Positions 6,715-64,000 of a DNA stretch of 64,000 nt are shown piece by piece. Under the pieces are notes generated by a model that saw only the letters and a program-made list of their open reading frames with translations, searched no databases and had not been told where the DNA came from. Source of the DNA: an uncultured Gammaproteobacteria bacterium (GTDB lineage: Bacteria > Patescibacteriota > Patescibacteriia > UBA1558 > GWA2-36-10); the NCBI GenBank assembly GCA_964515785.1, contig CAZEWH010000003.1, positions 16,013 to 80,012 of the forward strand. Direction: 5' to 3'. The first letter of the stretch is position 1. The number at the start of each line of letters is the position of its first letter. Position numbers and translations under genes: made by a program.

Positions 6715-6933
6715 TTAGGATCTGAAAATGTTTAGAAGAATCCAGCTGTCCCCCCGATCATCCTCCTGGCCGCGGGCCAGCTCCTGATCTAGATGAGGGC
6801 ATGATGTGGCAATGAAAATCTGCTCATCAGTGCGGGCAAGACCGACTGCTAGGGGTATTTCAGCTGAGGCCCTGCAATCGTACTGCTTGCATTCGCAAAG
6901 AATTGCCTGTGTTTCCTCGACTGCTTCGGACAC
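6715..6933 (-). CDS. small Cys-rich hypothetical protein, GC-rich (island C, second gene)
   Basis: track ORF 6715-6996 overlaps upstream gene; AAGGAGG then GTG at 6933 gives a 72-aa product MSEAVEETQAILCECKQYDCRAS...SCPH... without overlap; SD of next gene overlaps its stop. Confidence 0.4.
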   Translation of the reverse strand: MSEAVEETQAILCECKQYDCRASAEIPLAVGLARTDEQIFIATSCPHLDQELARGQEDDRGDSWILLNIFRS

Positions 6934-47950: not shown

Positions 47951-48568
47951 ATGGACGTAAAAAATTCACCAAAACAACATCTGATAGTAGGAATATTTTC
48001 TATAATTCTAGTTATTATTCTCCATTATTTATTAGATTTAGAGTGGGCCAAGGCTTTTGCTAGAACTTCATTTTTTCTTTTATTCTTGATAATGATAATC
48101 GGGCCACTGACTAGAATAAAAACTCCTACTAAAAGTGCAGAACCCCTAGTAAGTCCCTGGAGATGGCGAGGAGAATTGGGTATTTGGTTTTTTCTGACAG
48201 CTCTAATGCATTTTATTCTTTTATTAACAGACAGGTCTTTATCTACTATGATCAAAATTGGTGGATCTGGATATAGCTTGACCAATCTACTTGGTCTCAT
48301 TGCTTTGATCATGGCTATATTATTAGCTATCACTTCTATAGGAAAAGTTATTTCCTGGCTAGGAGTCAGATCTTGGAAAAGATTACATAGTTTGACCTAT
48401 GTGGTTTTTTATCTAGTGGCTGCTCACTATATATATTTTCAATTTTTCTCAACCTACGGCAAAGTTGGTCCTGATTGGTTTGGTTGGATAGCAACTATTC
48501 TGACTATCATCGCTATAATCCTACAAATCATTGCTTTTATAAAAACTGTTTTAAAACAAAAAAAATAA
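47951..48568 (+). CDS. polytopic membrane protein with conserved His in helices (ferric-reductase/MsrQ-like?)
   Basis: six hydrophobic helices, His in LMHFILLL and AAHYIYFQF; weak. Confidence 0.3.
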   Translation: MDVKNSPKQHLIVGIFSIILVIILHYLLDLEWAKAFARTSFFLLFLIMIIGPLTRIKTPTKSAEPLVSPWRWRGELGIWFFLTALMHFILLLTDRSLSTMIKIGGSGYSLTNLLGLIALIMAILLAITSIGKVISWLGVRSWKRLHSLTYVVFYLVAAHYIYFQFFSTYGKVGPDWFGWIATILTIIAIILQIIAFIKTVLKQKK

Positions 48569-48571
48569 ACT

Positions 48572-48650
48572 CCCGCCAGAGGCGGGTCCGCCTTTGGCGG
48601 AAAAATAACCAAATAGAAAAGACGTTCTAAAAATGAACGTCTTTTTTGAA
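48572..48650. terminator. triple hairpin terminator block
   Basis: CCCGCC-AGAG-GCGGG, CCGCC-TTTG-GCGG, and AGACGTTC...GAACGTCT + TTTTTT. Confidence 0.6.
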
Positions 48651-58538: not shown

Positions 58539-60122
58539 ATGTCCAAAAACAAATGGCTAAACAAAATACAAAAATATAAGCTAGATTATGTGGCTTTATT
58601 TGTTTTGGTGGGTGGCTATTTTACCAAATTGCAATGGAATAATTATATTGGTGATCCAGATGGTTTTTATCATACCAAAATAGCTCAATTTTTAGGCGAC
58701 GGCATTGTTCTCAAAAGCTTACCTTGGATGCAATTTAGTACTCTGACAAATAATTTTACTGATCATCATTTTTTATATCATATCTTACTTGTTCCTTTTA
58801 CTTATTTTAACGATCCGTTGATTGGTATAAAAATAGCTACTGTTTTATTTGCTACTGTGATGGTTTTAGTTTTTTATTGGCTATTGAAAAAATTTGATCT
58901 AAAATATGCTTGGATTTTTGCCTTACTATTTATTACTATGGAAGCAACTATTTTTAGATTAGGTCTAGTCAAGGCCAATTCTCTATCTTTGTTGATTATT
59001 TGGTTTTTGATTTATGCTTTATACCAAAAAAAATACTGGTTAACAGTATTGCTTGGTTTTATTTTTGTCTGGCTATATGGTGGCTGGCCAATTAGTCTTA
59101 TTATTCTAGTTACTTATTTGATAGCTGAATATATTTATAAAAAAATACACACAAATAAATTAAAAATATTTTGGTCAAAAATTATTCGTGTATTTTATCA
59201 AAAACCAGGCAATAATTTCAAAATATCTTTGAGTTTAATAGCTGGTTTGATATTAGGCCTAATCATCAATCCATATTGGCCAAAAAATTTGTACTTTTAT
59301 TACCAACAAATTGTCCAGATTGGCATAGTCAATCTAGGGCAACAAATCACAGTGGGTGGTGAATGGTATGGTACTAATCTGATGGCTATTATATCATCTG
59401 GAGCACATATTTTTGTATTAGCTAGCGTAATCTTTATTATTTTGGTGCTAAATCATAAAATAATTAGCCGACAAACTTGGTTTAGTTTTATATTGTCTTT
59501 GATATTTTTATTGTTAACTCTCAAATCTCGTCGTTATGTAGAATATTTCTGGCCTTTTGTATTATTTTTTACAGCTTGTGGCCTGACTGATATTATTAAA
59601 AAATTTAATTGGTCTGTTATCAAAAAATTCTGGCGTAGCATATCTAGTTTTCAAAAAGTTTATTTAGGAATCGTTAGTACTGTTTTTATTATTTTTATAT
59701 TGGTGCCGGTTTGGCAAAATATTATCGAAACTAAAATTCCACACAATCATGCCATCAACAAATTTGAAGCAGCGACCACTTGGTTGGCGTCCAATACTCC
59801 TCCTCAATCAATTATTTTGCATAGTGATTGGGATGAATGGCCAATACTATTTTATAATAATGATCAAAATTATTATATTATGGGTCTTGATCCAACTTTT
59901 ATGTATAATTTTGACAAAGATTTGCACCAAAAATTTGTCTCCATCACAACTGGTAAATATAAATACAATCTAGACAAACAAATCAAACAATCTTTTGATG
60001 CTGATTATATTTTTGTAGAAAAAAAGAGCCACCAGGCTCTAATAAACAATTTGGAAGAAAATCAAAATATTAATTTAGTCTATGAAGATGAATTATCGCA
60101 AATTTATTTTATTGAAAATTAA
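58539..60122 (+). CDS. large polytopic membrane protein (GT-C-like glycosyltransferase fold?)
   Basis: 527 aa, more than 10 helices; no catalytic motif confidently read. Confidence 0.4.
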   Translation: MSKNKWLNKIQKYKLDYVALFVLVGGYFTKLQWNNYIGDPDGFYHTKIAQFLGDGIVLKSLPWMQFSTLTNNFTDHHFLYHILLVPFTYFNDPLIGIKIATVLFATVMVLVFYWLLKKFDLKYAWIFALLFITMEATIFRLGLVKANSLSLLIIWFLIYALYQKKYWLTVLLGFIFVWLYGGWPISLIILVTYLIAEYIYKKIHTNKLKIFWSKIIRVFYQKPGNNFKISLSLIAGLILGLIINPYWPKNLYFYYQQIVQIGIVNLGQQITVGGEWYGTNLMAIISSGAHIFVLASVIFIILVLNHKIISRQTWFSFILSLIFLLLTLKSRRYVEYFWPFVLFFTACGLTDIIKKFNWSVIKKFWRSISSFQKVYLGIVSTVFIIFILVPVWQNIIETKIPHNHAINKFEAATTWLASNTPPQSIILHSDWDEWPILFYNNDQNYYIMGLDPTFMYNFDKDLHQKFVSITTGKYKYNLDKQIKQSFDADYIFVEKKSHQALINNLEENQNINLVYEDELSQIYFIEN

Positions 60123-61920
60123 TTTTTTCAGTAATATTTTCTAATTCCAGGTCTACTTCCAAATTTTTTATCTTGCTAAGCATATTATTACCCTGCCAAG
60201 CAAAAATCTGATAACTATCTATATCTTGATCTAGATAATAATAAAAACTAACCAAGCCATCTATTCCTAAGCCATAGTCTAAAGGCATATCAAAATAAGT
60301 ATTTTGATTATAAAATCTAATTAAATAATTTTTATCTTCTATGTTTTGCGTAATCTGCAAAATATTTTGTTTGTCTGTTTTTATAAGCTCCCAATCAGTT
60401 GGCTTGTCTACTATTTTATATAAATCTAAATTATTGTCTGCATGTTTATCTTTATGTTGCCATAATAATAAATTATTATTGACTTTTATTAAATTATAAT
60501 CTTTTAAAAATTCTCGCCATTTTCTTGGGGCCATATCTTTGACATCTTGCAAAAAAATACTACTGTCAAGCTCTGTTAAACAAGCTAAAAAGTCACTATA
60601 ATCTATAATTATAAAATCTACTTGAGGAGGGTCAAATTTTGCAGAATCTAGCTGACCTTCCCCAAAATAAGAATAACAAATCGGATATATATTTTGACGA
60701 CTACTAAAATTAGTTATTAATTTATCACTAATTATTAAAGAATCTGAGCCTGTAATTAAGCTTGAATAATTATTTATAATTTTCTGATAATCTTTGTCTG
60801 TTTGGTGAGCTAAAATATTTTTGATCGGCGAATAAAATATCAAAAAATACAAAGTACTAAAAGCTAACAATATAAAAATAATATTTTTGTATTTTTTATT
60901 AAATATTTTATTGACCCCAAAAATCAAAGCAATAAAAATGCCTGGCAACATACTCATAATATAATAACCAGAATAAACAATCACATCAAAACCACGCGCT
61001 GTCATCAAATATTGCAGTAGTGGAAATATCATTAAGCATAAATATTTGACACGCTTGAGTGGTATGAGTAATAAAGGCAATAAAACAAAAATAATCCCTA
61101 CTATATTTTGCCATTTGAATATATGTTGAATAACTTGAAGTGGGTGACTTAGCCAAGATAATAAAATACTCAGCAAACTATCTCCTCCTAGCCAAGCATA
61201 ATAAACCAAAAACTGACTACTATCTAAGGGCGAGAAAAAATTTATAGTTTTGTAAGCTATTACAAAATATATAACAGAAATAATTACTGGTGTTAAAATA
61301 TATTTTAATTTTTTCTTATCTATCAAGGCCAAGATACTAAAACCTGATGTTATCAAAAAAATATCTTCTCTAACTAATAAAGCTAAAATCAAAAATAATA
61401 TAAATATTTTAAAATTATTTTTTTTATAAAAATAAAATGCCCAAAATATAAAAAATGGCACCAGAGTAATAAGGTGAAATTCAAATAAATTTGCATTATG
61501 TATAAATGGATTAAGCAGCCATAGTATAGAAATAAATAATGCTAATAAATTATTTTTAAAAACTTTATTAGTAATCAAATATAAAGGCCAAGCAGCCAAA
61601 GCTAAAATAGAACTTTGTAATACTAATAAAATTTCTGGAGACTGCTTTATATAATAAAAAGGCAATAGCAAAAATATAATCGGTGTAAAATGATCAGCTA
61701 AATAGCTTTTTAAATTAACTGTATTAGCTAACAAATCTCCATGGATAGTGTTGAAAAAAGTTTGATTCAAAATTGCTAAATCTAGAATATTATAATCAAA
61801 ATTATAATATTTTTTTAGGCTCAAAAAACTAAATAAAATAATATAAGCTAGTATTAAAAGCCATAGTATTATCTTACCGGGGCCCCCCCGGGGGGGGGGG
61901 GGCGGGCCGCTTTTAGGCAA
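60109..61920 (-). CDS. large polytopic membrane protein; annotated start lies inside G/C homopolymer tract and is probably not native
   Basis: 603-aa ORF whose first 16 codons (MPKSGPPPPPRGGPGK, TTG start) are encoded by the G/C tract at 61877-61910; remainder AT-rich multi-TM. Confidence 0.4.
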   Translation of the reverse strand: MPKSGPPPPPRGGPGKIILWLLILAYIILFSFLSLKKYYNFDYNILDLAILNQTFFNTIHGDLLANTVNLKSYLADHFTPIIFLLLPFYYIKQSPEILLVLQSSILALAAWPLYLITNKVFKNNLLALFISILWLLNPFIHNANLFEFHLITLVPFFIFWAFYFYKKNNFKIFILFLILALLVREDIFLITSGFSILALIDKKKLKYILTPVIISVIYFVIAYKTINFFSPLDSSQFLVYYAWLGGDSLLSILLSWLSHPLQVIQHIFKWQNIVGIIFVLLPLLLIPLKRVKYLCLMIFPLLQYLMTARGFDVIVYSGYYIMSMLPGIFIALIFGVNKIFNKKYKNIIFILLAFSTLYFLIFYSPIKNILAHQTDKDYQKIINNYSSLITGSDSLIISDKLITNFSSRQNIYPICYSYFGEGQLDSAKFDPPQVDFIIIDYSDFLACLTELDSSIFLQDVKDMAPRKWREFLKDYNLIKVNNNLLLWQHKDKHADNNLDLYKIVDKPTDWELIKTDKQNILQITQNIEDKNYLIRFYNQNTYFDMPLDYGLGIDGLVSFYYYLDQDIDSYQIFAWQGNNMLSKIKNLEVDLELENITEKINFQ

Positions 61921-61998
61921 TATTAAAAAAATATAAAAATTATAAAAAAAAAACTATTTTATCACCCCGCCCCCCCGCCGGGGGGCCCCCCCCCCGGA
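61877..61998. repeat. pair of G/C homopolymer-rich tracts flanking a 53-bp pure A/T spacer
   Basis: CCGGGGCCCCCCCGGGGGGGGGGGGGCGGGCCGC ... 53 nt A/T ... ACCCCGCCCCCCCGCCGGGGGGCCCCCCCCCCGGACC; nothing like it elsewhere in window. Confidence 0.7.
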
Positions 61999-62089
61999 CC
62001 TCACTATTTCAGCTAATTTATCCATTAATCTAATTATAGCAAATTATGAGAAATTATTTTAACATGTGGATGCGGAGTATCTTTATGTG

Positions 62090-62118
62090 TTGACAAAAGC
62101 CAAAAAATATGATATAAT
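62090..62118 (+). promoter_or_regulatory. perfect consensus sigma70 promoter TTGACA-17-TATAAT driving lipoprotein gene
   Basis: exact hexamers, 17-nt spacer; AAGGAG 8 nt upstream of ATG at 62190. Confidence 0.55.
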
Positions 62119-62189: not shown

Positions 62190-62876
62190 ATGAAAGCCAT
62201 CAAAGTGATGTTGCTGCTACTTGCGTGCCTGAGCTTGCTCCTGGTGGGCTGTGGACAGCAAACCAGGACCACAAGTGGAGTCAAAATCGGTAGCTGGCCT
62301 CGTGGCAAAGATGCCACTGGAAGCAAGGTGATCGTCAGCGCCTCTTTTCAGAACAAATACAAATACCCCGTTGAGATCGCAATCAACAACGAGGATTTTG
62401 TTCTGATTCCGAGTGGTAAGAAATTTCCTTTCCGATTCAAGACTCATCACCAGGTCAGATATACTGTCCGGGCTGAAGTGGACAACGGCTATGATACCCA
62501 ACGTACCACAATCGAAGTCCAACGCTCCGGGCTATTCACCTACGGCGATGTGATTGTCATCAACGAAAACTTCATTCGCGATGCTTGTGAAGTGGTTGGT
62601 ATCATTACCAACAACCGCGGTTGGGAGATTACTTTCTGGCATTCTCAGGGTAGTAAACGCTGGGTCTTGAAACCTGGTCAGAGTACAGAGAAAATTACCA
62701 TTCTCTCTATTCCAACTACCTTCCACTGGGAGATCAGTGACCCTGACTACAGACAAAGTATGTTTGGAGTCAAGAGGCATCGGCCAACCTACTCTTATAA
62801 AGTCAATATCAATCAGAGCGCTGATTTTTACTGGCAGGGAGAGTGGCTCCACTGGCATTTTCCTCTTAATGATTGA
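62190..62876 (+). CDS. lipoprotein, GC-rich (island J)
   Basis: signal peptide with lipobox LLVGC; 228 aa; GC-rich codons; consensus promoter + SD + terminator. Confidence 0.6.
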   Translation: MKAIKVMLLLLACLSLLLVGCGQQTRTTSGVKIGSWPRGKDATGSKVIVSASFQNKYKYPVEIAINNEDFVLIPSGKKFPFRFKTHHQVRYTVRAEVDNGYDTQRTTIEVQRSGLFTYGDVIVINENFIRDACEVVGIITNNRGWEITFWHSQGSKRWVLKPGQSTEKITILSIPTTFHWEISDPDYRQSMFGVKRHRPTYSYKVNINQSADFYWQGEWLHWHFPLND

Positions 62877-62933: not shown

Positions 62934-63314
62934 TTATGGTATTGGGTCTGGATTACCTTCACCGTCACCAATTACACCTTCAGATAACAAACCATCAAAG
63001 ACAAATTTGACAATGGCATAGGCAGCAATGACAATCACCAGACCAATCGTAGCATTGACCATGACTTCTTTAGCTTCTTTGATTTTATCAGCATTACCCA
63101 CTGAAGTCATCCAGGTCAAACCACCCCTAACAATCAAAATAACAAAAATCAAACCCAAGACAGAAAGAATAGTATTTATTATTTTATTTATCACTTCTGG
63201 TAATGATCCTTGAAACATACCTGCACCAGCTACATCCAAACCAAAATTAGCAGCATTGGCTGTAGTTGGAAGCAATAAAACAAATAAAATTATTTTGTTG
63301 ATAAATCGTTTCAT
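62934..63314 (-). CDS. small secreted two-helix protein, VirB2/TrbC-pilin-like (paralog 1)
   Basis: Sec signal peptide ending ANA; mature about 100 aa with two hydrophobic helices; conserved GG(L/F/I)xWMTSxGN motif shared with two neighbours. Confidence 0.35.
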   Translation of the reverse strand: MKRFINKIILFVLLLPTTANAANFGLDVAGAGMFQGSLPEVINKIINTILSVLGLIFVILIVRGGLTWMTSVGNADKIKEAKEVMVNATIGLVIVIAAYAIVKFVFDGLLSEGVIGDGEGNPDPIP

Positions 63315-63392: not shown

Positions 63393-63746
63393 TTAAACTA
63401 CGTCGTCTTGTAATGAATTTAATACAAATCTGGCGATAGCGTAGGAGGATAAAATAATAACTAAACCAACAACGCCGGCTCCAATTAATTTTTTAGCTTC
63501 ATCTACTTTTTCAGTATTACCTTGAGAAGTCATCCATTTGAAACCACCCATCAAAATAATAACAGTAGCTAAAATGCCCAAGAAACCTAAAACAATATTA
63601 ATAATAGCAGCAATAGAGTCTCTTAGATTTTTGGTACCTAAATTTGTACCTGAATCTAGTAGATCATCAGTACCATATTGAGCCATAGCGTGTGGTGCTG
63701 CTAGCATAGGCATCACAACTAATAAAGAATAGTATAGTTTTTTCAT
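63393..63746 (-). CDS. small secreted two-helix protein, VirB2/TrbC-pilin-like (paralog 2)
   Basis: signal peptide ending AMA; GGFKWMTSQGNTEKVDEAKK motif. Confidence 0.35.
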   Translation of the reverse strand: MKKLYYSLLVVMPMLAAPHAMAQYGTDDLLDSGTNLGTKNLRDSIAAIINIVLGFLGILATVIILMGGFKWMTSQGNTEKVDEAKKLIGAGVVGLVIILSSYAIARFVLNSLQDDVV

Positions 63747-63826: not shown

Positions 63827-64000
63827 TTATCCAACCAGTGAAGTAAATAAAAAGTTCAAAATCACATAAGAAAAGAAAATAAAGGCCAAACCAAGTATGG
63901 CCCAAACAATAGTGTCTTTGCCTTTTTTGATCCTATCAGCATTACCCTGAGAGGTCATCCAAGTAATGCCACCCCAGACCAGATAAAACAAAGCAATGGC
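63827..64000 (-). CDS. small two-helix protein paralog 3 (C-terminal part only; gene runs off window end)
   Basis: reverse translation ...WGGITWMTSQGNADRIKKGKDTIVWAILGLAFIFFSY... stop at 63827. Confidence 0.3.
   Translation of the reverse strand, partial: AIALFYLVWGGITWMTSQGNADRIKKGKDTIVWAILGLAFIFFSYVILNFLFTSLVG

Follow-up and report, generated by a model that had tools for sequence, protein, structure and literature searches.

The stretch of DNA analyzed here (hereafter, the window) is 64,000 nt long with a G+C content of 34.8%, and the structure under study lies close to its right end, near the start of a gene for a DUF2079 membrane protein read from the minus strand. The structure consists of two blocks composed exclusively of G and C that enclose an A/T-rich spacer; it is located inside a 138-kb contig, without an N gap, and is flanked on both sides by the correct sequence of one and the same gene. 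The features of this locus, in the coordinates of the window, are the following.

58539-60122, plus strand: 527-aa multi-pass membrane protein, converging on the DUF2079 gene with a 14-nt 3' overlap (60109-60122)
60109-62025, minus strand: the real DUF2079 membrane-protein gene (PF09852, E=3.9e-53), with its true start at ATG 62025-62023
60109-61920, minus strand: mechanically called 603-aa ORF with a TTG start, the first 16 codons of which (MPKSGPPPPPRGGPGK in translation) are read from the left block
61877-61910: left G/C-only block, 34 nt, CCGGGGCCCCCCCGGGGGGGGGGGGGCGGGCCGC, with runs of 2,4,7,13,1,3,2,1,1
61911-61964: A/T-rich filler (the spacer), 54 nt, which includes GGC, C and C
61965-61997: right G/C-only block, 33 nt, CCCCGCCCCCCCGCCGGGGGGCCCCCCCCCCGG, with runs of 4,1,7,1,2,6,10,2
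62033-62062, minus strand: promoter-like site TTAAAA-18-TATAAT, 10/12, with TG, ending 8 nt upstream of the true ATG
62090-62118, plus strand: consensus promoter-like site TTGACA-17-TATAAT, 12/12
62190-62876, plus strand: 228-aa lipoprotein-like gene with a lipoprotein-type signal, MKAIKVMLLLLACLSLLLVGC, downstream of the preceding site
62934-63314, 63393-63746 and 63827-63991, minus strand: tandem small T4SS-pilin/TrbC-like genes (PF18895, PF04956)

An earlier interpretation made from the letters of the DNA without database searches (the sequence-only reading) had drawn attention to two G/C-only blocks with a 13-G and a 10-C run, and both are present as described, at 34 and 33 nt; besides G13 and C10, they hold two C7 runs. 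The spacer, given in that reading as 53 nt of pure A/T, is in fact one nucleotide longer and includes the G and C residues listed above, its longest uninterrupted A/T run being 35 nt. A scan of the whole 64-kb window identified the two blocks as its sole G/C-only runs of more than 11 nt, the next longest measuring 11 nt, and the expected number of such runs of at least 30 nt in 64 kb is about 7e-10 by chance. The run statistics are also foreign to the genome, with homopolymers of 13, 10, 7 and 7 in the blocks versus a maximum of 6 for G or C elsewhere in the window, and the mean run length of 3.8 and 4.1 in the two blocks compares with 2.0-2.3 in shuffles (p=0.002 and 0.004). No second structure that combines G/C blocks with an A/T spacer was found anywhere in the 64-kb window. 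Only two other locally G/C-rich spots occur in it, 6761-6786 (CTGGCCGCGGGCCAG) and 48569-48593 (CCCGCCAGAGGCGGG); both are short hairpins, and the latter looks like a terminator because it directly follows an ORF that ends at 48568.

Two arms of 24 nt, 61879-61902 and 61966-61989, form an inverted repeat with 88% complementarity, and a hairpin or inverted-repeat element was accordingly among the candidates considered. It was ruled out: in both DNA and RNA folding, the arms performed no better than dinucleotide shuffles (z = -1.4 to -1.5), and the blocks look like inverted repeats because any two blocks with long G/C runs are complementary by composition. An Rfam search of the locus retrieved no family, the matches being limited to generic miRNA hairpins below the threshold. 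A repeat search additionally detected a direct repeat at the locus, TTATC..CCCCCCCG..GGGGGG, with a spacing of 90 nt.

The effect of the structure on the reading frame is readily traced. From the ATG at 62025, the minus strand encodes MDKLAEIVRSGGGAPRRGGGVIK and is then closed by an in-frame TAG after 23 codons; beyond this stop comes a TTG (61920-61918, minus strand), followed by ...GKIILWLLILAY. Both the TAG that closes the true frame and the spurious TTG are carried by the spacer. The 603-aa ORF opens at this TTG and takes its first 16 codons from the left block, exactly as the sequence-only reading had it. The further suggestion that the native start had been replaced was correct in part: the ATG itself survives at 62025, and what separates it from the remainder of the gene is the in-frame TAG. 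The TTAAAA-18-TATAAT site is likely to be the native promoter of the DUF2079 gene because it ends 8 nt upstream of this ATG.

The closest database protein to the window ORF is P0001, a call of NCBI origin of 571 aa, which is the same protein begun at an internal TTG at 61824 (60109-61824, minus strand). The artefact for which we argue below would account for this mis-start, which is an error of annotation. The P0001 call is without the first transmembrane helix. The named DUF2079 homologues come from Patescibacteria (Komeilibacteria, Parcubacteria), share at most 48% identity with the protein and carry a tail of 10-20 residues ahead of the same first transmembrane helix, as in MLKFLKQYSYKILWLAIFIY.

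The decisive comparison came from the 90%-identity cluster of P0001, which includes a JGI protein of 606 aa (P0121) that begins MDKLAEIVRAAAAAGGRGKIILWLLILAY. Through this cluster member alone, an 83-kb JGI metagenome contig, L089, was found. The exact P0121 sequence is present on 2 contigs, and the one that was fetched, L089, has been recorded from 2 samples; neither the 603-aa nor the 571-aa product, looked up by exact sequence, led to a contig on record. Two additional features are defined by L089.

61879-62005 of the window: span of all differences between the window and L089 in a base-by-base comparison
L089 5170-5199 (corresponding to window site 61879-61995), gene strand: genuine G/C-only tract, GCGGGCCGCGGCCGCCGCGGGCGGGCGCGG, 30 nt

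Outside this span, the comparison revealed no differing base between L089 and the window, either in 2 kb on the upstream side or in 11.8 kb on the downstream side, and the upstream mismatches are confined to positions 62005, 62001, 61998 and 61994. Thus, an independent assembly of the same organism does not contain the structure; its 606-aa DUF2079 gene is intact and opens with the ATG matching window position 62025 (MDKLAEIVRAAAAAGGRGKIILW...). The site reads ATG GAT AAA TTA GCT GAA ATC GTG CGG GCC GCG GCC GCC GCG GGC GGG CGC GGT AAG in L089, with the 30-nt tract, in frame, in place of the 126-nt structure of the window. From this ATG to the GGT that both versions share, the window is longer than L089 by 96 bases, a multiple of three. 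The length of the N-terminal tail of the L089 product fits that of the homologues, and a frame that is otherwise conserved is broken in the window by the in-frame TAG. No 10-mer of the L089 segment occurs in the window version, and therefore the JGI version is no simple collapse of it.

Gene order across the tract is the same in L089 as in the window. The sequence-only reading had regarded the structure as the boundary between the genomic backbone and a terminal accessory block, a proposal that does not survive: the DUF2079 ATG and its promoter-like site both lie to the right of the tract, so that the tract interrupts a gene and does not divide backbone from accessory sequence, and the gene order continues in L089. 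The perfect consensus promoter that had been reported beyond the tract was recovered, at 62090-62118; it is identical in L089 and belongs to the context, not to the artefact. The 228-aa lipoprotein-like protein encoded further downstream had no Pfam match, and neither had the 527-aa membrane protein on the other side of the DUF2079 gene. With 45-50% G+C in a 35% G+C genome, the 228-aa gene, which is identical in the JGI contig, may have been acquired horizontally. In the T4SS-pilin/TrbC-like set, four genes are called in L089 (2272-4238).

The tract that L089 reveals is unusual in its own right. It encodes AAAAAGGR in frame, at codons 9-17, and this stretch sits in the cytoplasmic N-terminal tail of the DUF2079 membrane protein. 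Its longest homopolymer is 3. Fold prediction gives it an 11-bp all-G/C stem, and four GGC motifs on the sense strand and three on the antisense strand can be read directly from the sequence, together with one NotI and two SacII sites. The gene that holds it is otherwise about 25% G+C, in a genome of 35% G+C, where a tract of such composition is improbable. The N-termini of the DUF2079 homologues compared lack it, and no second tract of this kind was found in the sequence covered, 64 kb plus 17 kb. Searching a metagenome collection with a 24-mer of the tract yielded 9 matches, about the number expected by chance, all of them on contigs of 66-74% G+C, and no copy in an A/T-rich context. The left flank of the locus had 0 matches in the same collection, which is thus evidently without this organism.

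Comparison of the two blocks with the genuine tract provides a clue to their provenance. Each block matches the tract at 24/30 positions in the plus orientation, with p=0.03 against shuffles for the left block and p=0.2, which is not significant alone, for the right one; in both cases, the reverse complement aligned worse. In a three-way alignment, copy 1 is exact at its left and degraded at its right, and copy 2 is degraded at its left and exact at its right, a layout that is expected when two over-extended contig ends are joined without merging their overlap. The alignment suggests that the blocks are two corrupted tandem direct copies of the true tract left by such an unmerged join, and the direct repeat with 90-nt spacing points the same way. 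The corruption would have lengthened the runs, the mean run length being 3.8 and 4.1 in the blocks (maximum 13 and 10) versus 1.6 in the true tract (maximum 3). The A/T filler was likewise compared with the true flanks. Its resemblance to them falls in the top 1.2% of all windows tested, but in the top 9% among A/T-rich windows, and when the comparison was anchored, p was 0.11 and 0.31 relative to all windows and 0.32 and 0.70 relative to windows of similar G+C. As the resemblance is not significant once composition is controlled for, we make no claim that the filler is a noisy version of the flanks, and its derivation from them by degradation is suggestive only.

The sequence-only reading had proposed a check for the same tract at other contig ends, and sequence of the same kind does occur there, in unrelated assemblies. 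The scan covered one genome per species for 185,579 species and sought C7G7 followed by 20 A/T bases within 30 nt. It returned 88 stretches from unrelated taxa, the hosts including Streptomyces, Nocardia, Pseudomonas, Hymenobacter, Pantoea, Ruminococcus, Saccharibacteria, cyanobacteria and archaea. The matches share the style of the window structure, with G/C-only blocks of long runs beside A/T-only blocks. Of the 88, 47 fall no more than 300 nt from a stored-piece end, which is usually also a contig end; chance would place about 7.5% there. For many of the 47, the contig end is beyond doubt, as the locus makes up the entire contig or its final piece. Another 14 are within 300 nt of an N gap, which brings ends and gaps together to 61/88. 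Several matches make up an entire contig, 300-1300 nt long and with a coverage close to 1. The sequence class thus recurs at contig ends and gaps, and most of this public-assembly junk differs in placement from the window copy, which is internal to a long contig, lacks an N gap and has correct sequence on both sides.

Internal instances are also represented in the scan (27/88), many of them in contigs named 'tig...', and it follows from these cases that un-gapped internal instances are not rare in public genomes. Junk of the same style occupies positions that are internal or nearly so in long 'tig...' contigs from several metagenome-assembled genomes, namely at L003, L014, L027, L042, L047, L053, L057, L058, L060, L078 and L080. 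The source record of the window is not among the 88 matches.

Collectively, these observations make it very probable that the structure is an artefact of assembly or gap closure, nucleated at a genuine GC hairpin tract that is hard to sequence. An assembly artefact or scaffold junction had been one of the possibilities raised in the sequence-only reading, and it is the one borne out by the absence of the structure from L089 and by the occurrence of the same style at contig ends and N gaps elsewhere. Inverted repeats and GGC are known to trigger consecutive Illumina miscalls, 49-61% of which copy the immediately preceding base, and the sites of such errors cause coverage loss, assembly gaps and false branching in contig extension (Nakamura et al. 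2011, PMC3141275). The genuine tract possesses both triggers, the predicted 11-bp G/C stem and the GGC motifs, and the window structure begins at the tract, consists predominantly of repeats of the preceding base and occupies a place at which breaking or branching of an assembly would be expected. The sequence-specific errors were described at the level of reads and would be seen here through their assembled consequence, and the same mechanism may have acted at this site.

The course of events could have been as follows. The real genome would have the 30-nt G/C-only tract at this site and an intact DUF2079 gene. Reads entering the tract from either side would fall out of phase and call the preceding base again, coverage would drop, and at this point the assembly would have broken or branched. 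Each contig end would then have been extended through the tract with degraded reads, giving rise to long runs of G and C and, beyond them, to degraded A/T-rich sequence. Joining of the two ends with their overlap unrecognized would leave two corrupted direct copies plus the filler, for a net gain of 96 nt. Copying of the preceding base would turn CCCGCCC into CCCCCCC and GCGGCGG into GGGGGGG, and the homopolymer excess of the window consensus fits this type of error.

The principal biological alternative is a real strain variant, in which replication slippage at the GC hairpin duplicated and degenerated the tract and turned the DUF2079 gene off, the locus being a hypermutable contingency locus. 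Long G/C homopolymers at contingency loci are prone to slippage, and the poly-G/poly-C loci of Neisseria, Haemophilus and Campylobacter likewise place G/C homopolymers in the 5' coding region of envelope-related genes. The case at hand resembles them in that the tract occupies codons 9-17 of a gene for a surface-related membrane protein, the window version introduces a stop that puts one version of the gene out of service, the G13 and C10 runs would be slippage-prone and the extra 96 nt are divisible by three. If this reading were true, the locus would be a hypervariable site in a Patescibacteria genome, the window would represent a natural 'off' variant, and the tract would be one that expands into homopolymer-rich, gene-inactivating forms. 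However, the flanks are identical over 13.8 kb, and yet dozens of substitutions plus a duplication would be needed within 126 nt, with all of the substitutions running toward homopolymerization and the resulting style matching that of contig-end junk from unrelated assemblies. Moreover, unlike the alleles of contingency loci, the two versions are not linked by gain or loss of repeat units: they differ by 96 nt and in sequence, have no 10-mer in common, and the JGI allele is devoid of homopolymers longer than 3. A strain variant is therefore improbable, and the phase-variation switch that the sequence-only reading had entertained finds no counterpart in the two versions compared.

That reading had also considered the scar or boundary of an inserted element, which in its most specific form would be a small MITE-like insertion at the 5' end of the DUF2079 gene, bounded by G/C-rich terminal inverted repeats around an A/T core and possibly accompanied by a CCGG target duplication. 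The 88% complementarity of the arms (61879-61902 and 61966-61989) speaks for such an insertion, as do the CCGG at both junctions and the fact that the frame is open again, reading MDKLAEIVRSGKIILW, once the 117 nt of 61879-61995 are deleted. But the arms fold no better than shuffles (z about -1.5) and owe their complementarity to composition, the 64-kb window has no second copy, and the 'empty' site in L089 is not the product of a precise excision: it holds the 30-nt GC tract, which resembles each block and is collinear with it. An in-frame 117-nt insertion of this type with CCGG duplication was dropped as a candidate, L089 showing the GC tract and no clean junction at the site, and we consider an inserted element very improbable. 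A weaker and narrower version would limit the claim to the genuine 30-nt tract as a functional or once-mobile element similar to GC clusters. Short G/C-rich or palindromic inserts occur within genes of A/T-rich genomes, as with the GC clusters of yeast mitochondrial DNA and the Rickettsia palindromic elements, and the genuine tract, although not the window structure, is similarly a short hairpin-forming G/C-only segment, in frame within a gene of an A/T-rich genome. Unlike these elements, it is single-copy in the sequence examined and without a sign of mobility; the window, L089, the homologues and the metagenome scan yielded nothing that would point to a function or to mobility. The remaining alternative, that the window sequence is true and the JGI version is collapsed or chimeric, draws on the difficulty that GC-rich hairpins pose to every short-read assembly and on the existence of just two independent versions. 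Against it, the JGI version is in frame, has a tail length like that of the homologues and is of normal complexity, and its 606-aa product is found on 2 contigs, with the contig recorded in 2 samples. Given the lack of a 10-mer common to both, it is not derivable from the window version by collapse, and a 30-nt chimeric insert between exact flanks would presumably need reads that contain it. An error on the JGI side is accordingly as hard to credit as an insertion.

If the structure is an assembly or gap-closure artefact, its consequences are purely annotational: the frame acquires a stop, a false TTG is taken as the start and the gene call is truncated. The deposited genome would then carry a false insertion of 96 nt, the call for a conserved membrane protein would be cut to 571 aa, and the mechanical ORF list would display a false proline/glycine-rich start. 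The biological weight of the finding is small, and its usefulness lies in quality control: a filter for long G/C-only runs beside long A/T-only runs would flag sites that could otherwise be misread as phase-variation tracts, G-quadruplexes or element boundaries.
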